Positions 7,688-64,000 of a stretch of DNA of 64,000 nucleotides are shown here, piece after piece. The DNA is from Peptococcaceae bacterium UBA4068 (lineage in GTDB: Bacteria; Bacillota; Dehalobacteriia; UBA4068): NCBI GenBank assembly GCA_002382665.1, contig DFZA01000010.1:17589-81588 (forward strand), given 5' to 3'. The notes beneath the pieces were generated by a model. The model saw only the letters and a list, made by a program, of their open reading frames with translations. It had not been told where the DNA came from and did no database searches. Made by a program: the position numbers and the translations under genes. Position 1 is the stretch's first letter. Each line of letters starts with the position of its first letter.

Positions 7688-8488
7688 ATGAAATATTATG
7701 ATTATCATTGTCACAGCAATATTTCATTCGACGGACGCACACCGATTGCCGAAATTTGCGCTTCTGTAATTAAAGCCGGGGGCAGCGGAGTCACTTTTAC
7801 CGAACATATTGAGTGCGCTCAGGATTTTCCGCACGGAGGGCTGCTAGACTGGCAGCAATATCACAGTGAAATTGAACAAGCGCGCAAAATGTTTCCCGAC
7901 TTTTCAGTCGGCATGGGGGTTGAGGCTGGTTGGCAGCCGTTGATGCAGCCGCAAACGGAAGCCGCCGTCAAAGCCGGAAATTATGATTTTGTATTGGGGT
8001 CATTGCATTATATAGACGATCTGCCGATTTACAACGGCGCTTTTTCAGAGGGTAAAACTTTAAAGCAAGCTTACAGTGAATACTTCGCAGTTCTGCTGGC
8101 GGCGGTATCGGAAATGGTGGACTTCGATGTACTGGCACACATTGACTTAATCCGCCGTGACGAACAACTACCTAAAGTAGACTTCATTTACAACGATTAT
8201 GCCGATTATCTTGATCCCCTGCTTAAACAGTTGATTGAGCGCGGCAAAGGACTGGAGGTCAATACCGGCGGCTGGCGCTGCGGCTGCTACGAGCCCCATC
8301 CGGCGCCGGAAATACTACGCCGTTACAGGAAATTAGGCGGAGAGATCATCACCTGCGGCTCCGATTCGCATGTACCGCGCAGTCTGTTTTACCGAATCAA
8401 AGACGCTTACGGTCTGATCGAAGAAGCGGGGTTCAAATATATAAGTCTATTTGAGCACCGTCAACTTAAGCAAGTACCGTTTAAATAA
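7688..8488 (+). CDS. PHP-family histidinol-phosphatase (HisJ/HisK-like)
   Basis: DYHCHS, FTEH, DFVLGSLH, AHID, EVNT, GSDSH. Starts immediately after the hflX stop. Confidence 0.8.
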   Translation: MKYYDYHCHSNISFDGRTPIAEICASVIKAGGSGVTFTEHIECAQDFPHGGLLDWQQYHSEIEQARKMFPDFSVGMGVEAGWQPLMQPQTEAAVKAGNYDFVLGSLHYIDDLPIYNGAFSEGKTLKQAYSEYFAVLLAAVSEMVDFDVLAHIDLIRRDEQLPKVDFIYNDYADYLDPLLKQLIERGKGLEVNTGGWRCGCYEPHPAPEILRRYRKLGGEIITCGSDSHVPRSLFYRIKDAYGLIEEAGFKYISLFEHRQLKQVPFK

Positions 8489-11400
8489 TTGCCGGTACAA
8501 TAATAATTTGCTGCGTATCAATCATATAAAGATATGTCTCTTTGACCGGCAACTGCCAGATATCGGCGATGGCGCGGCGGTAATAGGCTAATTGTCTATA
8601 ATATGTTTCCACTATCTGCTGTTCGCTTTTGCCGCGGCTGCCGGTTTTATAATCAACCAATACCAGCCCGTCGTCTTCCCTAAACACAGCGTCGATCATG
8701 CCTTGTACAATCAGCATATCATCTGCAGCAGCACCCACAAGCTGCTCTCTCCCGGGTAGCGCATAGGTGAAAGGCACTTCCCTGTAAATTTGCTCTGCAG
8801 CAATCATCCGTTTGCCCAACGGCGAGGCAAATAAAGCGAAAATAGTGGCTGGATCTGTGATTTGGGCCTCCTCCGGCTTCAATATGCCCTGTTGGGCAAA
8901 CGCTTTGATCTGATCTGTAACAGCAGTAACACTTTGACAATTGGTAATATTGATTTTCTCCAATAGTAAATGATAAACAGTACCGCGTTGGTTAGCGGCT
9001 AATGATAACGTATCGCTTTCTTCCAACGCTATTTCTTCAATCAGGCAGCTATCTTGCCGGTCATCGGCAATGATTGCTGTCTTATTTAATTCGCTGACTG
9101 TCCATTTAATCGGATAGTTGCATAAATCGGCATAAGGATAACGGTAATCCATAATTTGCTTGATGACATCCGCATGTTTTGTTGGAGATAATGCTGTCTG
9201 AGCCGCAACAGCTTGCAAACGATTATCCATAACATCGGAATCTTCACTTTGTTGATCACCTATAAGCTGCTGACCAAAACGAATCTGCCAGCAACTGTTA
9301 TCGGTAACTACAGATTGACAATGACAATCAAAACTTGCCCTGATCTCTGTGGCATCAGGATGATACAGCAGCACCATCAGCAGCCATTGCAAATAACTGT
9401 CTTTGCATTGTAAAACGTAACGGCTGAAAATTTGTTGATCTGCAGACACCAGCAAGTCTTTAAAGTATTCTTCTAATTTATCCGGCGGTTTGCTAATTGT
9501 GCCAATTAATATCAATTGGCGGGCAGCACGAGTTACCGCCACATATAAGGTACGCAAATCTTCAGCGATCGCTTCCTGATGCAATTTATCTACAATAGCG
9601 GCACGTGTCAGAGAATCAAATTTTATTCTCCGTTCAACGTCGATATTTTTAGAGCCGACACCAAAATCTTTATGCCATACTACATCGGCTTTAGCTTGAG
9701 GAAACTGCAATTTGCGGCCCAGCGACGCCACAAAAACCACAGAAAATTGCAGGCCTTTGCTTTTGTGGATGCTCATGACCCTAACCACATCGGCGCTTTC
9801 ACTAAGCAGCCGTTCACTCTCATTGGTAGAGTTTTTCTCTAAAGCGTCATCAAGCAGGTTAATAAAACGGGATAACCCGCTGAAACTGCTTCGCTCATAT
9901 TCGCAGGCTTGTTGATGCAGCGCCCGTAAGTTGGCTTGTCTCTCCTGCCCGCCCGGCAAGGCGCCACTTAATTGATAAAAACCACGAGTCTGACAAAGCT
10001 GCCAAACCAAATCGGCTAAATGACCTTTACCTGCTTGCCTACGCCAGACTGTCAACTGTTCTAAAAAGGCAGCGGCTTTAACTGATAAGGCGTCATCGCC
10101 AGCCGATGTCTGCAGCAGGCAATCATAAAAGCTTTGCTGCTTATCCATTAAACGTATCTGCACCAATTCCTCACTGGCAAAACCGGCTATTGGCGAATAA
10201 AGCACGGCAGTAAAAGGTATATCCTGCAGAGGATTATCAATGATTTTCAAACAGGACACGATTAAAGCCACTTCGGGCCGGTCAAGATAGGAAGGTGATT
10301 TATCGGCAACCGCAGGTATGCCCATTGCTAACAGCTTTTTAACTATTTCCTGATCGATATTACGCGGGGAACGCAGCAATACGGCAAAATCACGGTAATG
10401 GTAATTATATTTATCTATTAATTGACGAACGCGTTGACCAATTAATTCCGCTTCCCGGCGCGCGTCTTTGATACCGGCGCTTTCGGTCAGGTCGTCGTTT
10501 TCGTTTATCTCCGCTGTATCATCTTCATTGTTTCCGTTCTGGTCTTCCCGAGGACGGTTAAGCATCCATAATTCACAAGGATCCCCCTGGATATCACTAC
10601 CGGCAGAAAGCTCAGCTTGTTGGTTATAATCAATCTCCGCCGTTTCTTCACTAAACAGGCGGCGGAAAATGTAATTGACGCAGTTAATGATATTACAACT
10701 GCTGCGATAATTGAGGTTTAAATCGATGCGGATACCACCCTGATTGGCAGCATACTGTTGATACTTGCCTAAGAAAAGGCCGGGCTCCGCCATACGAAAG
10801 CGGTAGATGCTCTGTTTGACATCGCCGACCGCAAAACAATTATTATTGTTTTGCAACAGTTGTAATATTTGTTCCTGCACCGGATTGATGTCCTGATATT
10901 CGTCTATCAAGATTTCTGCAAATTGGCTTCTTAGGCCTTCCGCCACACCGTTTTCTTCGTCTTCTAAAACTTGCAGGCAAAAATGTTCCATATCACTAAA
11001 ATCTACCAAATTGCGGCGGCGTTTTTCCTGGGTTAAGGCCCTGTCATAAGCTATAGTCAGTTGACAAAGACCGGATATCAGCACAGCCGCTTCGCGCAGA
11101 TCGGCTAATTGTCTTTGGGGAGAACGACGGCAATACTTTTTTTGGAGTCCCGTAATAATCTCCTTGCCGGTTTTTCGTAAAGAAGCAAAGCGCTCTTTAT
11201 CATTTATCGGGGTTTGTTTATCCATAGGCGACATTCTGTCAAACTTGCAGTTAGCAAGATTAATCAACAGTTGCTGCCAACTGCCGATCTGTAACAAAGA
11301 AACAATCACTTCGTCTTCACCTAACAGTTGTTGCCTGCAGCGTTCAGCTATATTGGGGGTAGAAAGCGCCAACCTAAAATAACTATGCGCTTGTTCGATA

Positions 11401-54614: not shown

Positions 54615-56150
54615 TCAATCTTTTTGTGTTTTATTTCGCAAACTGTAGTAAATTTCTTTTAAAATAGTTATCCCCATTATTCGAGTAAAAATAAAATATA
54701 GGCCGCAACCAATAATAATTAATACTAGAACTTGCAAGGCAAGAACTGAGCGCATTAACGCCATCGGTACAATCTTTAGCGAAATAAAAATTAACACACC
54801 CATTAATATAGCCGCAACAGTCATTTTTAATATTTGTTTGATATTGATGCCGCCGTCTAAACTCTTACGTAAATACAAAACATGAAACAAAGTATTGACG
54901 GCAGCAGCCAAAGAATTGGCTAAAGCAAGCCCGCCATGCGCCATATACGGCATTAACAACAAGCTGGCGCCAATATTGACCGCAATGGAAATTAAACCGG
55001 CAATCAACGGTTGCTTGACTTCATTCATCGCGTAAAATGCTCTGGTCAGCAACATATTAAACCCCATAAAAACTATACTGGGGCTGATATAAAACAAAGC
55101 ATAGGCTGTAATTCTCGTAGCCTCGGCATCAAAACTGCCACTTTCAAATAATACGCGGATGATCGGTTCGCTTAAAACCATCAACCCTACCGTGGCCGGT
55201 AAAGCTAAGAAAGCAACCATATCCAAACCTTTATCGACGGCCGCCTTTAAAGACGGTTTATCATCTTCCAATGCTTTTTGGGTCATTAAAGGATAAATAA
55301 CGGTGGCAATCGCGGCAACAAAAATGCCCAGTGGCATATTCATCAGCTTGCTGGCGTAATTAAGCGCCGAAATACTGCCCTCAGCCAAACCAGAGGCAAA
55401 TATCCTGTTGATTATCGTATAAATTTGATTAACAGCAATGCCAATGACAATCGGCGCTATGTTTTTAGCGGCTTGCCGCAGCGCCGGATGATGGAAATCG
55501 CATACCGGAAGATATACAAAACCGCAGCGTTTGAGCGCAGGTATTTGTATAAGCAAAAAACCCAAGAAACTGACTAAAGTCGCCCAGGCCAATACATGAA
55601 TATTATTTCCCGCGAAACAGATGATGCCGCCAATAATAATCAAACTGCCAACACCGGGAGCAATGGCGGCAACCGCAAAACGGCGGCGGCAATTAAGAAT
55701 GCCCGATATTACCATGCCTACGCCCATAAATAATACTGAAGGGAAGATAACCCGCATCAAATTTATAGCCAGTTGGCTGGTCACCGGATCAAGTCCGGGC
55801 GCCGTCAATTTCACTAAAAACCGGGCAAAGATAATGCCGGCAATACTGACAATTAATAATACCAACACCGTAATATTAATTAAAGAGCTGCCGACAATAC
55901 TCGCTTCTTGATTGCATAGCTGATCCTCTTCGGGCCAATAACGCGCCAATGCCGGTATTACCGCTACAACTAACGCATAGCCCAAAACGGATTGCAGGCT
56001 ATAAGGCAACGTATAAGCAACAAGGTAGGCGTCTGTCAAATATGAGGCGCCAAATCCTGAAGCAATAAACATCTCCCGCAAAAAACCTAAGAGCTTAACG
56101 ACAATATTTATTATAAAAACCGCGCCCGCCGCTCGGATAATGCTACCCAC
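54615..56150 (-). CDS. murJ: MurJ/MviN-type flippase, copy 2
   Basis: KLLGFLRE..IAS.FGA...DAYLVAYTLP, GSISALNYA.KL..MPLGIF, RAFYA, GLALANS. Confidence 0.88.
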   Translation of the reverse strand: MGSIIRAAGAVFIINIVVKLLGFLREMFIASGFGASYLTDAYLVAYTLPYSLQSVLGYALVVAVIPALARYWPEEDQLCNQEASIVGSSLINITVLVLLIVSIAGIIFARFLVKLTAPGLDPVTSQLAINLMRVIFPSVLFMGVGMVISGILNCRRRFAVAAIAPGVGSLIIIGGIICFAGNNIHVLAWATLVSFLGFLLIQIPALKRCGFVYLPVCDFHHPALRQAAKNIAPIVIGIAVNQIYTIINRIFASGLAEGSISALNYASKLMNMPLGIFVAAIATVIYPLMTQKALEDDKPSLKAAVDKGLDMVAFLALPATVGLMVLSEPIIRVLFESGSFDAEATRITAYALFYISPSIVFMGFNMLLTRAFYAMNEVKQPLIAGLISIAVNIGASLLLMPYMAHGGLALANSLAAAVNTLFHVLYLRKSLDGGINIKQILKMTVAAILMGVLIFISLKIVPMALMRSVLALQVLVLIIIGCGLYFIFTRIMGITILKEIYYSLRNKTQKD

Positions 56151-56189
56151 AAACTGCTACTCCTTCATATTGCGATAAAATTATCGTTA

Positions 56190-56894
56190 TTAAACCTGCA
56201 GATCATCGGGTATTTCTACTTCGGATTGATCAAGAGAATTAATGCGGAAGTTTTGGTATCCTACCTTTAACCGTTCTCCGGTAAAAGAATCGGTAAACTC
56301 AACTTGCAGTGGTATGCCATACTTAGTGCTGACCCAATATTTATTACCATTTGAATTTTCTAATATCATACAACACTGATCTTCTATAGTATCAAAACCG
56401 CTGGCTTCCCAATCTCTGTAATCATAATCCTCTTCATCAATCAAAATATCCAGATCTTGATCATCAAACGACGTCTGAACCGCATGATAATCATTATCCG
56501 GCGAATAAGAAACAACAGTATGATCAGCGCAATCATAATAGGAAATATCTTCGCCGGCGTCACCAACCGATGAAATGATTTTAACTTTACCGCCCATATA
56601 CCAGGTTTTAATATTGGCACTACCGGAAGCATAAGCAATCGTTTGCTCATAATAATAAGATTCGATTTTTGAACGCGCTGTCAATAGGTCATCAACCGTA
56701 GTCTCGCGGCCATTATCAGTAAATTGGTCGTGATCCGGTTTAACATTGTCAGTAGACTGTTCTTCCTGACCCTCTTCGATAATTACCATTTGGCTGTCGG
56801 CGTCCCGGTTTTTATCACAACCGTTCAGCAATGCCATTGGTATTAATAGCAAACATACAGCAACCATACGTATCATACCGGCTTGCATTTTCAT
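56190..56894 (-). CDS. Lipoprotein with a LolA/DUF4412-like beta-rich domain
   Basis: Lipobox LLNGC; KTWYMGGKVKI...G.DTIEDQ.C.ILE....KYWV..KYGIPLQVEF. Confidence 0.6.
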   Translation of the reverse strand: MKMQAGMIRMVAVCLLLIPMALLNGCDKNRDADSQMVIIEEGQEEQSTDNVKPDHDQFTDNGRETTVDDLLTARSKIESYYYEQTIAYASGSANIKTWYMGGKVKIISSVGDAGEDISYYDCADHTVVSYSPDNDYHAVQTSFDDQDLDILIDEEDYDYRDWEASGFDTIEDQCCMILENSNGNKYWVSTKYGIPLQVEFTDSFTGERLKVGYQNFRINSLDQSEVEIPDDLQV

Positions 56895-57171
56895 ATCTCC
56901 CTAAATATGAATATATACTTCTTTCATAGAATTATATCACCAGTATAATGGGAAAACAATCATTTATATTCATAACGTACATATAAATTGATAATAATTT
57001 TCACTTATAAGCTTAATATCTCTTTACTTTTAATAAATATATTAGTATAATAAAGTGGGTTATTGTATGTGCAATTTCTATAAGTTAACAATTGATATTG
57101 GAATTTATAGTAGTGTATATAGGTTATATGTCTGATGGTAAAATGGTAATCTATTAGGAGGAAATGTTTTT

Positions 57172-58134
57172 ATGATTTCAAAAATCAAATTACTTAAGAA
57201 CGAATCCGGCCAGGCTATGGTTCTAGTTTCATTAATGTGTGTCGTATTATTCGGCTTTACAGCTGTTGCCATTGATTGGGGAAGAGTCGCTATAGAGAAA
57301 AATCAGCTGCAAAATACCGCCGATGCCGCAGCGTTAGCCGGGGCACAGGATTTGCCAAGCACAGCTACTGCTGAGAATACAGCGATCAGTTATGCCGAGG
57401 ATAACGGTGTCCAATCTTCTGAGACAACAGCCACTGCTCCATATAACGGAGATTCAAAAAAAATTGAGGTCGTATGTTCTAGACCAGTAGAATACACATT
57501 TGCCCGTGTTTTGGGGTTTAACAATACAACGGTAAGTGCCCGGGCGGTAGCTAGTAACACTGGAACATCTTCCGGTGAATCAGGACTGAGGCCCTGGGCT
57601 GTGCAGTCAAAGTATAAGGAGATGGGTGGTAAAAAGGGTGATACCTGGACTGGAAATTGGCTGGATTATACCTATTCATATGGACTTGAATTTGAACTGA
57701 AAGAAGGCGGTGGCGGAGGTTCCAATGGTTATTACGGGGTTGCTGCTTTTGGAGATCAGAATGCTAGTTCCGCCGATGTGTATAAAGACAATATAACTAA
57801 TGGATACGATGGTATCGTCAAGATTGGCGATATTATAAAAGACGGCCCGGGTAACAAAAATGTAAAAAATGTAATTAATGATCTTATGACGGAATCAGGC
57901 GATACTGAAGGCGATTATACTAAAGCAACAAAAGGTGATTCACGTGTTATTATAATACCCAAAGTAGATCCGACGAATAGTAATAAGGTTATCGGTTTTG
58001 CAGCCATATATCTGAAGTCTGTTGATCAACAAGGTTATATCACAGCTAATTTCTTATATGACACTACTTGGTCAGAATCCCAAAAAGAGTCACATGATGA
58101 TTGGGGCCTAGAGCCTGTCAAGCTTATCGATTAA
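57172..58134 (+). CDS. TadE/TadG-like pseudopilin (Tad domain protein)
   Basis: KNESG|QAMVLVSLMCVVLFGFTAVAIDWG...QLQNTADAAALAGA is a type IVb/Tad prepilin-like N-terminus; AGGAGG RBS. Confidence 0.85.
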   Translation: MISKIKLLKNESGQAMVLVSLMCVVLFGFTAVAIDWGRVAIEKNQLQNTADAAALAGAQDLPSTATAENTAISYAEDNGVQSSETTATAPYNGDSKKIEVVCSRPVEYTFARVLGFNNTTVSARAVASNTGTSSGESGLRPWAVQSKYKEMGGKKGDTWTGNWLDYTYSYGLEFELKEGGGGGSNGYYGVAAFGDQNASSADVYKDNITNGYDGIVKIGDIIKDGPGNKNVKNVINDLMTESGDTEGDYTKATKGDSRVIIIPKVDPTNSNKVIGFAAIYLKSVDQQGYITANFLYDTTWSESQKESHDDWGLEPVKLID

Positions 58135-58187
58135 CGTTGGTTGCAATAATAAACAAGATATAGCAGTGAAAAAATAACAACGAATTT

Positions 58188-58219
58188 CCGCCGAACTATG
58201 GAATCCATAAGGCGGTTTA
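58188..58219 (+). terminator. Hairpin downstream of the Tad gene
   Basis: CCGCC..TATGGA-A-TCCATA.GGCGG followed by TTT. Confidence 0.5.
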
Positions 58220-58280
58220 GAAAAATTTTTAGAGTTACACTTTCTCCATATTTGTTTAAAATTAAGGTTGTTTTGCAAGC

Positions 58281-58316
58281 AAATCCCCTTTTATCATGAA
58301 AGATAACAGGGGATTT
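58281..58316. terminator. Second intergenic hairpin
   Basis: AAATCCCCT.TTATC-ATGAAA-GATAA.AGGGGATTT. Confidence 0.6.
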
Positions 58317-58487
58317 ATTAATTTGTCATACAACATCAACCCAAAATTAGAGTGGCTTTATATAAGAAAATATAATATATGAAAATGTTTTACAAGGTGA
58401 TTATTTAAAGGGTAGTAATAACGATATCATAAAAGCTAGGCAAAATAGATTACGGCAATTCAGTTATTAGTACCGTTACAAATAAAT

Positions 58488-58527
58488 AAGAGAAGCGGTA
58501 GGCTTTATCAGCCGTCCCGCTTCTCTT
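58488..58527 (-). terminator. Terminator after the LPXTG adhesin gene
   Basis: AAGAGAAGCGG..GGCT-TTATC-AGCC..CCGCTTCTCTT. Confidence 0.75.
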
Positions 58528-58567
58528 CTCTTTTTATTATTTAAACATTGACTGACTATAGATATAC

Positions 58568-61084
58568 TTATTTACTCTTGCGCTTAGCTTTCGAGTTCAA
58601 TAACAGGGCGGACGCGATAAGCACAATGCCTAAGATACCAATAATAGTAGCGGTCGCCATTCCACCTGTATCAGGTAGTACATCGATATCGCCTAATACT
58701 CCAGATTCTTCTTCGGGTTGGACTACAGGTTGATCTCCGTTATCTACGTCAATATCGCCTAATACTCCGGATTCCTCGAATATATTCTCAATAACAACGC
58801 CTACCCGGGATGTACCGGTTATTTTTCCAGTAGAGCTACTATCCGGTCCCGTCCAGCCGGCATCTTTCTGATCATCTGTAAGTGTTTCGGTTACGGTATA
58901 TTCTGCGCCTAAAGGAATTTTTGTGAAGGTAGCTGATTCTCCGTTAGCAAGCGAAAGGGTATATTTGCCATCACTCAATGTTCCTCCGTTGCATTTGATT
59001 CCGCTCAAATCGCTTCCTGTAAACTGAACCGTAATATCAAATTTCTCTATTGTGGACGCACCGTCGCCAGTGACATTTTTCGTAACAATTAATGAACCGT
59101 ATTCATCCGGATCAGACGGCGTATCTTTGTCATATTTATTCTTTACTATGATGTCGTTCTGCTGAGAATCACTGATTGTACCGGATGCGTCGCTGCTTGC
59201 TCTGAACCATCCCTTGCTTATTTGCGTACTGGTCAGTTTTTCTATTACGGTATAGGTTGTTCCCAGCGGGATATTTGTAAATGTCGCAAACTCGGCATCA
59301 CTCAAGGACAGAGTGTATGTACCGTTCGAGTCTGTATCCCCGCCGCTGAAGTCGATATCTTCAAGACTACCACTACCGTTTTCTCCGATATTAAACTGAA
59401 CTGTGATAGCGAAATCTGCATCGGGTGCACCTGTTGTCAATACGTCCTTGGTTACCTTCAATGAACCGTATTCAGGATCTCCAGGTGGCGTTCCCGGATC
59501 ATATGTATTCTCAACTGTTTTATCAACCTCTGTTGTGCTGTTTATTGTACCGTTTAAATCATTCGCCTCATTCACCGGGCCTTCCCAACCTGCTGAGGTT
59601 TGCGCAGGAGTTAGGTTCTCCGTTATGGTATAGCCTATTCCCATTGGGATATTTGTAAATTCCGCGAACTCATCATCACACAATGACAGAATATATGTGC
59701 CGTTCGGGCTTGTAGTCCCGCCGCTGAATTCTATATCATTAAGATTATCGGTTGTTCCTGAAAACTGTACTGTGATAGCAAATTCCTCTGTCGAGGATGC
59801 ATTGTCACCAGTTACATTTTTCGTCACCTTCAATGAACCGTATTCAGGATCTCCCGGCGGCGTTCCCGGATCATATGTATTCTCAACTGTTTCTTCAACC
59901 TCTGCTGTGCTGTTTATTGTACCGTTTAAATCATTCGCCTCATTCACCGGGCCTTCCCAACCTGCTGAGGTTTGCGCAGGAGTTAGGTTCTCCGTTATGG
60001 TATAGCCTATTCCCATTGGGATATTTGTAAATTCCGCGAACTCATCATCACACAATGACAGAATATATGTGCCGTTCGGGCTTGTAGTCCCGCCGCTGAA
60101 TTCTATATCATTAAGATTATCGGTTGTTCCTGAAAACTGTACTGTGATAGCAAATTCCTCTGTCGAGGATGCATTGTCACCAGTTACATTTTTCGTCACC
60201 TTCAATGAACCGTATTCAGGATCTCCCGGCGGCGTTCCCGGATCATATGTATTCTCAACTGTTTCTTCAACATCTGTTGTTTCGTCGTTTATTTCGCCTT
60301 CCAAATCATCAGCCGGGCCTTCCCAGCCTGCGTCTTCCTGATCACCCGTAAGTGTTTCGGTTATGGTATAGGACGTTTCCAGCGGGATATTTGTAAAGGT
60401 AGCGAATTCTCCGTCAGCAAGCGAGAGATCATATGTGTCTGTGTCATCATTCCATGTCCCACCACTGCATTGGATTCCGCTTAAATTGTCCCCTGAAAAT
60501 GCTACCGTGATAGCAAATTCCTCTGTCGTGGATGCATCGTCGCCAGTTACATCCTTCGTTACTTTCAATGAACCGTATTCAGGATCTACCGGCGGTTCGT
60601 AGGAAATCAGATCAATATGGCTGACACCTTCATCATGACAACAAGTAGCAGGATCAGGACTATTAATTTTGCTTACTGTGACCGTTTTGTTTGCAGTATT
60701 TATTTCTATTTGATAATTATACTGGTTACCTGCTATAAAATCATATAGTTTAAAACTTGTCGATGTGGTTACATAACTATTTGCTGGATCAACACTCGGG
60801 TCCAAATAGTCTTTATCCTGATTATAATCTTTTCCTATTACACTTTTAATTGTGTCATTATCATCGGTGATAGTATCGTCAACCCAGATAAAAGCAGAAG
60901 TAGACTGCTTTATCACAATAATATTCGAGTCGCCGTAGTCATAAGTCCCCAGTGCATTAAAGATCTGTCCATCTAATTTATAGCTTCCAGTCGTGTCGGC
61001 CGCCAATGCCGCTGCACAGACACATAAAACGATTACTAAAATAAAAATAATACTGAATACTTTTCCTTTAACTTTTTTAATCAT
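58568..61084 (-). CDS. Sortase-anchored surface protein with five CnaB/Ig-like repeats and an LPDTG sorting signal
   Basis: Signal peptide; five units, each running GSL.VTK.V ... Y T(I/V).E ... V.N; then LPDTG (58664-58678), a TM segment and the basic tail KAKRKSK. Confidence 0.9.
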   Translation of the reverse strand: MIKKVKGKVFSIIFILVIVLCVCAAALAADTTGSYKLDGQIFNALGTYDYGDSNIIVIKQSTSAFIWVDDTITDDNDTIKSVIGKDYNQDKDYLDPSVDPANSYVTTSTSFKLYDFIAGNQYNYQIEINTANKTVTVSKINSPDPATCCHDEGVSHIDLISYEPPVDPEYGSLKVTKDVTGDDASTTEEFAITVAFSGDNLSGIQCSGGTWNDDTDTYDLSLADGEFATFTNIPLETSYTITETLTGDQEDAGWEGPADDLEGEINDETTDVEETVENTYDPGTPPGDPEYGSLKVTKNVTGDNASSTEEFAITVQFSGTTDNLNDIEFSGGTTSPNGTYILSLCDDEFAEFTNIPMGIGYTITENLTPAQTSAGWEGPVNEANDLNGTINSTAEVEETVENTYDPGTPPGDPEYGSLKVTKNVTGDNASSTEEFAITVQFSGTTDNLNDIEFSGGTTSPNGTYILSLCDDEFAEFTNIPMGIGYTITENLTPAQTSAGWEGPVNEANDLNGTINSTTEVDKTVENTYDPGTPPGDPEYGSLKVTKDVLTTGAPDADFAITVQFNIGENGSGSLEDIDFSGGDTDSNGTYTLSLSDAEFATFTNIPLGTTYTVIEKLTSTQISKGWFRASSDASGTISDSQQNDIIVKNKYDKDTPSDPDEYGSLIVTKNVTGDGASTIEKFDITVQFTGSDLSGIKCNGGTLSDGKYTLSLANGESATFTKIPLGAEYTVTETLTDDQKDAGWTGPDSSSTGKITGTSRVGVVIENIFEESGVLGDIDVDNGDQPVVQPEEESGVLGDIDVLPDTGGMATATIIGILGIVLIASALLLNSKAKRKSK
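59454..60271. repeat. Near-identical 372-bp tandem repeat inside the adhesin gene (about 2.2 copies)
   Basis: ACCTTCAATGAACCGTATTCAGGATCTCC recurs at 59454, 59826 and 60198. I count 5 substitutions between the two full copies. Confidence 0.95.
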
Positions 61085-61186
61085 AAAATTTCATTCGCCT
61101 CCTCATATCTCTTTCGCCTAATGTTTTCTTAAATCTAATTATTTGGTCGGGATTGCTGTTCTGTCGTGTTTAAATGTCTGATTACT

Positions 61187-61666
61187 TTACTTAGTGTCCG
61201 CTGCTAATTTATTGTTCATCACTCCGTCTCCGTCCAGAGCGCTGTCAATCATCTTCAGAAGCTCAAGTGCACTGCGAAAATTCAGCGTACAGTTCTTTTC
61301 GGCCCATGTTACCTTTCCCTGCCAGGTAGCATTTTGCCTGTATTGTATATGCACTACAAACGTCCCTTTATCACCTTGCTGAGAAGTAATATCATTTTCA
61401 TTCATAAAATTCGCAATCACCTCTTTCACCGGAGACCTCAGTTGTTTTTTGGCACTGAAAGTTCTTGATTTTGTTGATGACTGAGGGTATCCAATACGGT
61501 CAAATACCTCTTCCATTTCCAAAAATATTTTTTGTGGTCCCACAAACGGAACCGCAGCAGTACTCAAGCAATGGAATATTCTTCCCGAAAACCCTGATTG
61601 ATCTACCTGATCAACACAAATCGTAAATACGCTCGAAGCGCGAGTAGTGGATTTTGAATTAACCAT
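61187..61666 (-). CDS. Conserved clostridial hypothetical protein with two similar halves
   Basis: SVFTICVDQ...FSGRIFH...PF.G...IFLEMEEVF versus GTFVVHIQYRQNATWQGKVTW...NFRSALELLKMIDSAL. Confidence 0.8.
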   Translation of the reverse strand: MVNSKSTTRASSVFTICVDQVDQSGFSGRIFHCLSTAAVPFVGPQKIFLEMEEVFDRIGYPQSSTKSRTFSAKKQLRSPVKEVIANFMNENDITSQQGDKGTFVVHIQYRQNATWQGKVTWAEKNCTLNFRSALELLKMIDSALDGDGVMNNKLAADTK

Positions 61667-61911
61667 CCTTTGGTCTCTCCCCTTTTGATGAATTCATAAT
61701 AACATCGCTCATCTACGATTTGGCTACAAAACCCCAAAATATGTAAAAATATTACAATTTTTGTTCCTAAGGTCTAAGGTTAAACATTGCCCAGATAAAT
61801 AGATGGATAAATTCAATATTATTGTTTTATTCAACAAAAAAGATCCTAATTGTAATCAATTGGATCAAAAAAACAGACAACATGTGTAATTATCTGTTGA
61901 TAATTATAAAA

Positions 61912-61933
61912 GGCGTATCAATATTGATACGCC
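61912..61933 (-). terminator. Terminator after the BTAD regulator gene
   Basis: Perfect palindrome GGCGTATCAAT|ATTGATACGCC followed by TTTT on the minus strand. Confidence 0.8.
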
Positions 61934-61963
61934 GTTAATTATTAATTCCGAAAATCTGAAACA

Positions 61964-63226
61964 TTATCCCCATAAAGAACGATCATTATTAAACTTTATT
62001 GCATCGCCATTAAAATTAAATTCAGCCGCAGGCAAAACACTGCACTTCAAATGAATTCCTCTTCCATTATATGACTTGCGATAATTAGCGGTTATACGAT
62101 CGGATATTAAGTTGCAATTTTCCATATTTGTTCCGATCAAAAGCACAAGAAACTGAGTAACATTGTATCTGGTATACATATCTCCACGCCGTAAAGAATT
62201 TTTTATAGAATCTGACAGGCATTGTGCTGCATATGAAAGCCGGTTATCAGACTTGGGCAAGTCGCCGCTTTTATTAGCCAGGTTGCAGAGCATTAAATAA
62301 ACTGACTGACCGCTGCGCTCCATCATCCTTGAAACAAAACGATAGCTGTCAATAAAGCTCATCGATGTACAATAGTAGGCGCCTCTTAGCTCCGATTCCT
62401 CCTTGATTTCATCTCTAATCTCTTTGATCGGCAATCTTTCATCCTTGAGTTTATCTGATATCTCGCCGAAAAGCGCTTTTAGCTCCGCCGATGGAGTAGT
62501 GTTCCAATCATCAAGAAGCATCTCTGTTGCAAAATTGTAGGCAATAAATGCATCTTTAATACGGCCTTCAGCAATAAGACATCTTATGTATATTATATGG
62601 AGCTCTTCCTCAAATGGGTAAATCCTCATGCCTTTTGAACAAAGCTTCAGCATTGTCTGATAATCTTCATTTTCCCTTAACAGTTCCCAAGCTCTCTTAA
62701 AACATTGCAGATAGAGATTAGAATAGTAAGCGGAAACAACTGTCGCCCAATCATTTCCGGCAAGATTTGGCAGAAAATCACCATCATAAAGATCAATTGC
62801 GCAGGTATAAAGCTCAATCTTTCTTTGATAAGTCTGCCCAGGTTGCTTGGCTTGATTAACCGTTGTTTCGAATTGGTGGGAATCGATTTCACATGGTATA
62901 GTTGCATTCCATCCATACATACCGTCGCTGCAGTATATATATTCCTGTTTTGGCAGTCCCAAATCCAGCAGAACCTTTCTCAAACGTGTCACTAACACCT
63001 GAAGCGCCTTAACGGGATTATCGATCTCTTCATCACCGTATAACACGTCGATCAGCTTTTCCTTGGTAATGCTTTTGCCGCTATTCTGAATCAGGTACTG
63101 GAGCAAAAAGGACGTCCTGCTACCATTGTATTTTTTAAACACAATGGATTTCCCACCGGCAGTAATAGAAAAACTGCCGAACATTTTTATCTTTAAAGAC
63201 TTTTCATCCATCCGAACTTTTCCCAA
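61964..63226 (-). CDS. SARP-like regulator: winged-HTH + BTAD + degenerate GGDEF domain
   Basis: IKMFGSFSI, KEKLIDVLYGD...LQVLVTRLRK (wHTH); AIDLYDGDFLP...PFEEELH..YIRCL..GR...A..AY (BTAD); C-terminal LRRGDMYTRYNVTQFLVLL. Confidence 0.88.
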   Translation of the reverse strand: MGKVRMDEKSLKIKMFGSFSITAGGKSIVFKKYNGSRTSFLLQYLIQNSGKSITKEKLIDVLYGDEEIDNPVKALQVLVTRLRKVLLDLGLPKQEYIYCSDGMYGWNATIPCEIDSHQFETTVNQAKQPGQTYQRKIELYTCAIDLYDGDFLPNLAGNDWATVVSAYYSNLYLQCFKRAWELLRENEDYQTMLKLCSKGMRIYPFEEELHIIYIRCLIAEGRIKDAFIAYNFATEMLLDDWNTTPSAELKALFGEISDKLKDERLPIKEIRDEIKEESELRGAYYCTSMSFIDSYRFVSRMMERSGQSVYLMLCNLANKSGDLPKSDNRLSYAAQCLSDSIKNSLRRGDMYTRYNVTQFLVLLIGTNMENCNLISDRITANYRKSYNGRGIHLKCSVLPAAEFNFNGDAIKFNNDRSLWG

Positions 63227-63453
63227 CCCAAATTATTCTTTAATAAATTAAAGTATCATTCATTAATAACCTTTAATTTATATTAAGTAATAATATCATA
63301 ATTATCTAAAATTGTCATTATTTTTTTTTACAATCCCAATTATAATGATCTCTATACTGAATCCGCAGAAGACCACTACCGTGCTGTCGTGATACAAATT
63401 ATATTGAAAATTGTTTTATATATGGTATGATTTTGAAAGGAGGGCCGGAAAAC

Positions 63454-64000
63454 ATGAATAAAAGACGAATTGCAACAATACTTCTGGTTTCGGCCGGAAC
63501 TATTTTGATAATAACGGCGGCTATTCTTGAATATCAAGACTTCCCATGGGATGCTTTATTTAGCAGAAGCAACCAAAATTGGAGCGACGTTGCTGACCCC
63601 AAACCCATTAATCTTGAAGATGGAGAAACTATCGTTAGTGATGATAATCAAGAACCTGCCGAGGACACATATGAAGGTACTGTGCTCCCAGGACAAATAG
63701 ATGAGAATTCTACCTCTACCGCACCGTCTGTTTTTGAACAGCTGGGGATACTTAAAATACCGGTTATAAACGTTTCGGCTTACATATTTGAGGGTACGCA
63801 AAAACAGCTAAAATACGGCGTTGGACATGTTATTGGTACTGATGCGATTGGTGAGAAAGGCAATTGTGTAATTGCAGGACACAACTATCATCCCTTCCGT
63901 CATCTTAATCTTCTTAAGAAGGGAGACAATGTTATAATTAAAACTCCCCAAAACACTTATACTTATACAGTATATGATAGCTTCACCGTACAACCCCAAG
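63454..64000 (+). CDS. Sortase (class D-like), runs off the right edge
   Basis: Not in the ORF track. ATG 63454 after AGGAGG; N-terminal TM, acidic linker, LGILKIPVINV...EGT...LKYGVGH...GNCVIAGHNYHPFRHLNLLKKGD. The catalytic TLxTC would lie beyond the window. Confidence 0.9.
   Translation, partial: MNKRRIATILLVSAGTILIITAAILEYQDFPWDALFSRSNQNWSDVADPKPINLEDGETIVSDDNQEPAEDTYEGTVLPGQIDENSTSTAPSVFEQLGILKIPVINVSAYIFEGTQKQLKYGVGHVIGTDAIGEKGNCVIAGHNYHPFRHLNLLKKGDNVIIKTPQNTYTYTVYDSFTVQPQ

Follow-up and report, generated by a model that had tools for sequence, protein, structure and literature searches.

What switches on the surface adhesin encoded near the end of a 64,000-nucleotide stretch of DNA from Peptococcaceae bacterium UBA4068 (contig DFZA01000010.1, positions 17,589 to 81,588; hereafter the window)? 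A first-pass annotation of positions 57172–64000 had read five adjacent genes, coding for a sortase, a regulator with a degenerate GGDEF domain, a two-repeat small protein, an LPDTG surface protein and a Tad pseudopilin, as a self-contained adhesion island with expression coupled to a second messenger by a protein receptor instead of a riboswitch. Checking the open reading frames (ORFs) of the window by ORF listing and Pfam/NCBIfam profile searches recovered all five genes at the positions given there. The functional unit, however, is smaller than the proposed island. It comprises the regulator with its own terminator, a promoter lacking a −35 element and carrying two phased repeats, the small protein, and the surface-protein cargo. 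Taken as a whole, this three-part cassette is best explained, in our judgement and with reasonable probability, as a predicted adhesin switch responsive to cyclic di-GMP (c-di-GMP). The computed basis consists of domain folds, gene order, promoter layout, covariation of DNA boxes with recognition helices, invariant I-site residues and riboswitch context. The genes of the unit are as follows.

61964–63226, − strand: regulator, 420 amino acids (aa) from TTG at 63226; Pfam Trans_reg_C and BTAD matches, C-terminal GGDEF-fold domain
61187–61666, − strand: small protein, 159 aa; zero matches in Pfam and in NCBIfam
58568–61084, − strand: LPDTG surface protein (the adhesin), 838 aa; Pfam DUF7601, 218 bits in five stretches, and an NCBIfam LPXTG anchor

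The regulator joins a SARP-type core to a degenerate GGDEF domain

The domains of the regulator and its putative ligand site were located at the following positions.

about 62909–63199, − strand: winged helix-turn-helix (wHTH), N-terminal domain
about 62459–62887, − strand: BTAD, middle domain
about 62027–62383, − strand: GGDEF-fold domain, C-terminal
62096–62191, − strand: putative c-di-GMP I-site, with R346-R-G-D349 at 62180–62191, R377 at 62096–62098 and the dead NVTQF motif in between

An OmpR-type winged helix (Trans_reg_C, 33.9 bits against a Pfam cut-off of 26.2) followed by BTAD (59.9 bits, cut-off 22.1) placed the protein in the Streptomyces antibiotic regulatory protein (SARP) family; in other gene calls it begins at ATG 63211 and has 415 aa. 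Its AlphaFold model, built on a 22-sequence alignment, had a predicted local distance difference test score (pLDDT) of 86. In Foldseek searches the N-terminal 260 residues resembled AfsR (PDB 8k60) and EmbR (2ff4) with an E-value of about 1e-11, and the last ~120 residues resembled many solved GGDEF domains of diguanylate cyclases, with template-modelling (TM) scores to the target of 0.5–0.71. A profile of the tail alone matched the Thermotoga maritima diguanylate cyclase 4urg (E 1e-9), and together the structural and profile matches indicated a GGDEF fold.

The active site of this fold has decayed. N355-V-T-Q-F359 stands where GGDEF would stand, and profile alignment laid Y-s-k-s-Q-F of the regulator tail on Y-G-G-D-E-F of the T. 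maritima cyclase. Among 61 distinct homologues taken from the related loci described below, the catalytic-acid position was Q in 52 and R in 8, with the acidic catalytic pair in none, and the DxD-type metal-binding strand of the regulator tail has decayed to LMLCxL. Lacking both a catalytic GG(D/E)EF motif and the metal Asp, the regulator is therefore not an active cyclase. Five residues ahead of the GGDEF position it carries an RxxD, with an Arg downstream, as I-site receptors do. The same alignment placed RRGD on the I-site RxxD of the T. maritima cyclase, a position mutated in entry 4urq, and by alignment offset R346, D349 and R377 fall on R359, D362 and R390 of PleD, which we take from the PleD literature to be its primary I-site residues. 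All three were invariant in 61 of the 61 homologues. Because this triad has persisted throughout while the catalytic acids and the metal strand were lost, the tail reads as a dead cyclase with an apparently intact, putative c-di-GMP pocket. The degeneracy noticed at first pass thus proved real, and exactly the c-di-GMP I-site residues have been retained.

A distant regulator homologue (24% identity) was also found in a Halanaerobium metagenome-assembled genome (MAG; L092:429–2128). There, a stand-alone degenerate GGDEF-like domain of 116 aa (LRAGD...EQYLIIL) follows the regulator homologue in place of a small-family gene, and a secretin gene lies further downstream.

Phased direct repeats replace the −35 element of the predicted adhesin operon

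The regulator gene ends in its own terminator and is therefore a separate transcription unit. The two genes behind it are preceded by a putative promoter of their own.

61912–61933, − strand: intrinsic terminator directly 3′ of the regulator gene; 9-bp stem with five G-C pairs, then TTTTATAATT
61696–61728, − strand: putative activator-dependent promoter of the small-protein/adhesin operon; TGTAGCCAAATCGTAGAT-GAGCGATGT-TATTAT

TGTAGCCAAATCGTAGAT consists of two GTAG-type direct repeats 11 nt apart, separated by an 8–9-nt spacer (GAGCGATGT) from the −10 TATTAT, and the −35 position is occupied by GCCAAA, a poor element with two of six matches. The repeat and −10 pattern gave a single match in the window, with none expected. 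Judged from its sequence, the arrangement is that predicted for SARP-dependent promoters, in which phased direct repeats replace the −35 element and the 3′ repeat stands 8–9 nt from the −10, a layout that we take to be canonical. The adhesin gene starts 102 nt past the small gene, and since no terminator was predicted in these 102 nt, the two genes were read as one predicted operon. A window-wide scan found no regulator box ahead of the sortase or of the regulator gene itself, and direct control of the sortase and autoregulation were therefore dropped for this locus.

Most related loci showed the same promoter layout at a fixed distance upstream of the small gene, typically 63–130 nt from the aligned small-protein start. 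A promoter score of at least 17 was reached in 56% of loci compared to 4% of shuffled controls, and the layout was present also at loci without an adjacent regulator. The sequence of the repeats differs by subfamily and co-varies with the predicted recognition helix of the regulator.

helix ALQVLVTRLRK: repeat TGTAGCC
helix NNLKVT(V/I)SNLRR, including NNLKVTVSNLRR: repeat (A/T)TTAACC
helix SLRAVIFRLRK and relatives: repeat (A/T)GTAAC
helix SSLNNTIFRLR: repeat GCGAAA
helix SLNN(L/V)IYR: repeat GCGTGAT
helix LNNLLYRLKK: repeat TGAG(T/A)CA

This covariation is what cognate operators would predict and is supportive of that role for the repeats, with shared ancestry contributing to the correlation.

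These features suggest a mechanism in which the SARP-type activator (wHTH plus BTAD), transcribed alone and carrying a dead GGDEF domain with its I-site triad, would bind the two phased repeats at 61696–61728, probably as two side-by-side protomers. Binding would switch on the promoter and thus the operon, the 159-aa small protein first and the LPDTG adhesin second, and the adjoining, separately promoted sortase would anchor the adhesin to the wall. That the SARP–dead-GGDEF protein acts at the box promoter to turn on both genes seems to us quite likely. The signal is probably c-di-GMP bound at the I-site, plausibly cross-linking two protomers on the tandem boxes; by pairing or re-orienting them, high c-di-GMP would turn the adhesin on. 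The small protein may act as the regulatory partner of the activator, in feedback or in specificity. What we infer in this scheme is DNA binding, which ligand is sensed and in what direction it acts, what the small protein does, and the pairing of sortase with substrate.

The cassette recurs across Clostridia with varied cargo

One genome per species was scanned for loci of the small-protein family, which yielded at least 572 loci, and 79 were kept for analysis with our own ORF calls and hidden Markov models (HMMs); 76 of them were informative for regulator linkage and 72 for cargo. All 79 belong to Clostridia (Lachnospiraceae, Oscillospiraceae, Christensenellaceae and Peptococcaceae), and several genomes hold two of the kept loci. 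A regulator homologue stood upstream of or near the small gene in 59 of the 76 informative loci: directly upstream on the same strand in 45 (median gap 187 bp), directly upstream but divergent in 5, and within 6.5 kb in 9. The reverse search, started from two regulators, found a small-family gene after each. Association of the two genes, which the first-pass annotation had proposed to check, was thus strongly positive when followed in both directions, and regulator, small protein and surface protein make up a conserved module.

In 55 of the 72 loci the small gene is followed within 1.5 kb by the start of a large ORF on the same strand (at least 500 aa; median 1,581 aa), usually less than 100 bp away. 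These cargo genes fell into three classes.

class 1: LPXTG adhesins or pilins with one or two sortases
class 2: a VWA/DUF7604 giant, then several BsaA-family SipW-dependent matrix proteins and a SipW peptidase
class 3: giant Flg_new, MBG or Cna_B proteins without sortase or SipW

SipW and BsaA-family genes occur in about a quarter of the cassettes, with TIGR04090 matches of up to 203 bits. SipW/BsaA fibres or unanchored giant proteins are encoded by about half of the cargo operons outside the window.

c-di-GMP-I riboswitches lie beside the locus and inside some related cassettes

The leaders of the window lack a c-di-GMP riboswitch, as the first-pass annotation had noted: an Rfam scan at E ≤ 1 found no riboswitch within 56000–64000, and the c-di-GMP-I class was also absent window-wide in a search with our own model. 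The view past the window end was provided by L001, a 161-kb contig from a hydrocarbon-degrading enrichment metagenome, which was obtained by exact-protein look-up and agreed with the window at every one of 7,400 bases compared. Downstream of the sortase it continues with a good sigma-A promoter, three tandem c-di-GMP-I aptamers and the gene for a secreted CAP/YkwD-like protein, confirming the earlier suspicion that the window edge cuts the locus.

L001:7009–7386, − strand (window-equivalent about 64281–64658, + strand; ~280–660 nt past the window end): triple c-di-GMP-I array

The three aptamers scored 84, 84 and 78 bits (RF01051, gathering score 35). The promoter reads TTGACA-17-TAAAAT, each of the first two aptamers is followed by a terminator, and the array stands ahead of the CAP/YkwD-like protein of 176 aa. 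The triple array beside the sortase is also conserved in L011, a Peptococcaceae MAG and the closest species-level relative. With such an array next door, the organism therefore uses c-di-GMP and the neighbourhood is under c-di-GMP control.

In the homologous cassettes, c-di-GMP-I aptamers above the Rfam gathering threshold were found between the small gene and the cargo of L005/L015, L007/L027, L012 and L091, and a Christensenellaceae MAG (L087) has one at 8405–8489 ahead of the regulator gene. At L007 the 5′ arm of a terminator overlaps the 3′ P1 strand of the aptamer; ligand should therefore block termination, which predicts an ON switch. Immediately 3′ of their giant cargo gene, L007 (13341–13842) and L027 (15285–15787) each have a second triple c-di-GMP-I array, in front of a transglutaminase-core/DUF553 protein. 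With these aptamers in homologous cassettes, the c-di-GMP regulon includes the cassettes of at least part of the family. The all-locus census, which was of c-di-GMP-I, counted this class in only 5 of the 79 species loci; riboswitch enrichment as a general rule was rejected on this count, and the aptamers are a minority feature. With c-di-GMP-I in homologous cassettes and three copies beside this very sortase, the proposal of a protein receptor rather than a riboswitch was too strong, and the protein and riboswitch routes appear to be combined.

Several observations weigh against the proposed switch. Riboswitches in some cassettes make c-di-GMP control attainable without sensing by a protein, the Pfam GGDEF model stays below threshold on the regulator tail, 13 of the 76 loci have no regulator within 10 kb, and the repeats are 12 nt apart in most loci versus the 11 nt typical of SARPs. 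The R/D/R triad itself could persist for fold stability or for a different ligand. The regulator might accordingly activate through the repeats without its dead GGDEF domain sensing c-di-GMP, leaving any c-di-GMP control to the riboswitches, and the tail would then mediate dimerisation, dock the small protein, or sense another nucleotide such as GTP, pGpG or a hybrid cyclic dinucleotide. This alternative draws on the riboswitches that already give c-di-GMP control in some cassettes and on a tail too diverged for the Pfam model, as well as on a diverged extra small paralogue that overlaps the regulator gene start in five loci, suggesting a protein–protein partnership, and on the stand-alone GGDEF-like domain after the Halanaerobium regulator. 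We nevertheless consider it unlikely, since the three invariant residues are exactly the PleD-type I-site contacts of c-di-GMP at the same spacing, every catalytic and GTP-site signature has decayed, and selection for a mere dimer interface would hardly keep precisely this triad in 61 of 61 homologues.

The small protein defines a large family and may partner the activator

The small protein had no significant relatives in Pfam, NCBIfam or a PDB profile search. Its AlphaFold model (pLDDT 71) showed two beta-beta-beta-alpha units with a low-confidence basic linker, for which Foldseek returned nothing from PDB better than E 0.07; weak matches to MHC-like, DnaK-SBD, Rdx and IDEAL were taken as noise. 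Profile-to-profile alignment with hhalign related the two halves to each other (E 3.4e-5), so that the description of the protein as two-repeat was borne out as an internal duplication. It is predicted to be a small cytoplasmic protein encoded by the first gene of the activated operon.

A full profile search gathered 3,095 clusters at 50% identity into an unannotated and unnamed family, almost all members of which stand alone at roughly 150 aa; tandem fusions of roughly 290 aa also occur. Conservation across the family is nearly complete in the C-terminal unit, FVVHVQYRQNATWQG.V.WAEKN...FRSALELLKLIDSAL, and in the linker motif YPQ.ST..R.F, whereas the N-terminal unit is variable. Short ORFs of 63–91 aa that match the family HMM sit beside or near full-length small genes in L069 (10557–10775), L081 (10546–10815), L073, L024 and L064. 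At L026, two box–small–giant units stand in series behind a single regulator (small genes at 1365–1835 and 9962–10432); the two small proteins share 154 of 157 residues, and their boxes are the same and the giant cargo different.

Two roles for this protein have to be weighed. It might serve the cargo, by holding or targeting Sec substrates of very large size in the cytoplasm, or by promoting elongation or antitermination on the very long transcripts of its own operon, as UpxY and LoaP do. Consistent with such a role, the small gene always heads the cargo operon and not the unit of the regulator, the next gene usually encodes more than 1,000 aa, and each duplicated box–small–giant unit of L026 has its own, nearly identical copy in front of a different cargo. 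In contrast, the most conserved half of the protein is nearly invariant over cargo of unrelated folds and secretion routes, orphan copies without cargo occur in L016 and L025, and Foldseek against PDB gave no fold match to SecB, NusG or KOW. In several loci, moreover, a riboswitch separates the small gene from the cargo, so that the protein would be made while the cargo is off; with the small gene upstream of the riboswitch gate, a regulatory role therefore fits better than that of a cargo chaperone. We regard service to the cargo as doubtful. A partner or feedback element of the activator is the role that we favour, tentatively and at somewhat less than even chances.

A bolder extension, which we think improbable as a whole, would make the SARP–dead-GGDEF protein and the small protein a new class of c-di-GMP effector, in which ligand at the I-site clamps protomers in pairs on the boxes and a small protein of new fold binds the activator for feedback. 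The small protein, made first from every target operon, would perhaps dock its YPQ-S-T...R-F linker in the TPR-like groove of BTAD. Were this true, bistable or mutually exclusive expression would be expected among the paralogous adhesin, pilus and fibre operons of many gut Clostridia, and any cargo behind a riboswitch downstream of the small gene would be gated by c-di-GMP twice in series.

The adhesin and its sortase

The adhesin has a signal peptide, five DUF7601/DUF5979 Ig-like repeats, LPDTG at 58664–58678 and a membrane span; its C-terminus consists of LPDTG, 24 hydrophobic residues and KRKSK. The remaining features of this pair are listed here.

59454–60280, − strand: tandem repeats in the adhesin gene (Tandem Repeats Finder), 372 bp, 98% matches, 2.2 copies
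63427–64000 (likelier start 63454), + strand: sortase, divergent from the regulator, incomplete at the window end; Pfam Sortase, 68 bits
63404–63431, + strand: sigma-A-like promoter of the sortase, TTGAAA-16-TATGAT, without a regulator box

Each 372-bp repeat encodes one 124-aa Ig-like unit. The adhesin of L001 (10583–12727) has 714 aa compared to 838 aa in the window, exactly one repeat unit fewer, a difference that may reflect copy-number variation or assembly collapse. The sorting signal of the window adhesin was the only one among the window ORFs, even with a relaxed pattern, in agreement with the first-pass designation of this protein as the sole LPXTG substrate. The full sortase on L001 has 227 aa, with catalytic signatures IAGHN inside the window and LTLLTCTP just past its end. 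The full-length protein passed TIGR01076 at 92 bits, and none of the sortase class models reached its cut-off. Sortase and surface protein display the features of a sortase/LPXTG pair, namely a sortase domain with the His and the TLxTC Cys on one side and LPXTG, hydrophobic span and basic tail on the other, and their adjacency suggests that this sortase acts on this adhesin. A match to caiA RNA at 63389–63456 (+), overlapping the promoter and start of the sortase, scored 27 bits against a gathering score of 55.5 and was probably due to chance.

The cassette is associated with sortases and LPXTG cargo far more often than a rough estimate of chance would give. Of the 79 loci, 18 have a sortase within 10 kb, compared to ~2% by that estimate, which comes from assumed typical sortase numbers per genome and is not a computed control. 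The promoter of the sortase in the window is separate and lacks a box, and the position of this gene beside the regulator is conserved in the closest relative only. It is a cargo-specific accessory that tracks LPXTG cargo and not a conserved member of the cassette.

Relation to known systems

The wHTH and BTAD core, matched at an E-value of about 1e-11, is held in common with AfsR of Streptomyces coelicolor (PDB 8k60, 8hvr) and with EmbR of Mycobacterium tuberculosis (wHTH-BTAD-FHA; 2ff4), and target promoters of SARPs have phased direct repeats in place of the −35 element with the 3′ repeat 8–9 nt from the −10, a layout seen also in the putative promoter here. In contrast to these actinobacterial proteins, which have FHA or NOD/TPR sensors and control antibiotic clusters or cell-wall enzymes, the regulators described here occur in Clostridia, carry a degenerate GGDEF domain as sensor and are linked to adhesins, pili and matrix fibres. 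Their repeats are mostly 12 nt apart, and the target operon begins with a conserved gene for a small putative partner.

Degenerate GGDEF domains serve as I-site receptors in PelD (Pseudomonas aeruginosa), PopA (Caulobacter crescentus), SgmT (Myxococcus xanthus), PssE (Listeria) and YdaK (Bacillus subtilis). The regulator resembles these proteins in its dead active site, in its retained RxxD and downstream Arg, and in a predicted output of surface polymer or adhesion. None of the five is known to be a DNA-binding transcription factor, whereas here the receptor domain, with its putative binding, is fused to a SARP module. PssE is covered in PMC4125290.

Sortase-anchored adhesins under c-di-GMP riboswitch control have been described in Clostridioides difficile (CD2831 and CD3246; PMC6200980) and in Bacillus thuringiensis (CbpA; PMC7423583), and the triple-tandem c-di-GMP riboswitch Bc3-5 of B. 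thuringiensis (PMC4759541) is a precedent for the triple array. They share with our locus and the homologous cassettes the second messenger, the LPXTG adhesin output and the tandem aptamers. The operon of the window differs from them in having no riboswitch, a protein activator and a small protein taking that place, and in the related loci that have riboswitches both layers are combined in series.

The cassettes that drive SipW and BsaA-family genes, about a quarter of the total, recall the sipW-bsaA matrix-fibre operon of Clostridium perfringens, in whose control the cassette is presumably not involved. The cargo in the window, in contrast, is a sortase substrate and not a BsaA fibre. Temperature is named as the signal for the C. 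perfringens operon (PMC7395162).

The literature searched held no description of the SARP–GGDEF fusion, of the small family or of the cassette, which agrees with the first-pass view of the system as not previously described. The cassette is a combination of a SARP activator and an I-site-type receptor, both of known kinds, with a new protein family of unknown function, and it is probably an undescribed attachment switch. c-di-GMP control in Clostridia has been documented through riboswitches and PilZ proteins. To our knowledge no c-di-GMP-responsive transcription factor is known for this class, and the literature searched contained none; if our reading is true, the regulator family would fill this gap. 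The family is not rare: it heads sortase-pilus, BsaA/SipW-fibre and giant-adhesin operons in Lachnospiraceae, Oscillospiraceae, Christensenellaceae and Peptococcaceae, and one genome often carries several copies. These groups are dominant in the gut and in anaerobic digesters, and how they attach has hardly been studied. The cassette bears on how these commensals decide to stick, and it offers a testable handle in one protein, three point mutations and one 33-bp putative operator. With it comes a large protein family that has no name yet (about 3,100 clusters at 50% identity) and whose predicted fold, as modelled, matches nothing solved.

Neighbouring genes

The fifth gene of the proposed island is convergent with the adhesin.

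57172–58134, + strand: TadE/G-like protein, 320 aa; Pfam Tad, 49 bits; convergent with the adhesin, solitary

It is TadE/G-like at its N-terminus only. The genes called within ~7 kb of it encode MurJ, a glycosyltransferase, and SH3 and SLH proteins; no Tad ATPase, platform or any further Tad gene was called in that range, so that a Tad/Flp pilus system is not represented. None of the 79 related loci has a homologue of it, and even L011, from the closest species, lacks one. With no homologue there and no Tad partners nearby, the gene was ruled out as a member of the module, and it is a mere neighbour of the cassette.

A single co-regulated, self-contained island of sortase, regulator, small protein, adhesin and Tad, with a protein receptor replacing the riboswitch, is for these reasons very improbable. 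All five genes are adjacent, and the order sortase–regulator–small protein–adhesin does recur in L011. The Tad part of the model is, however, already contradicted by the related loci, the promoter of the sortase lacks the box of the regulator, riboswitches are found next door and inside homologous cassettes, and many cassettes have neither sortase nor LPXTG cargo. The smaller unit of regulator, box promoter, small protein and cargo is the one that we retain.

Genes resembling those of type IV pili and type II secretion systems (T2SSF, T2SSE and pseudopilin-like genes including DUF4860) were observed in or beside the cassettes of L005 (10951–14753) and L051 (5875–9779). They are unrelated to the solitary TadE-like gene of the window, and in L051 they sit between the regulator and the small gene.

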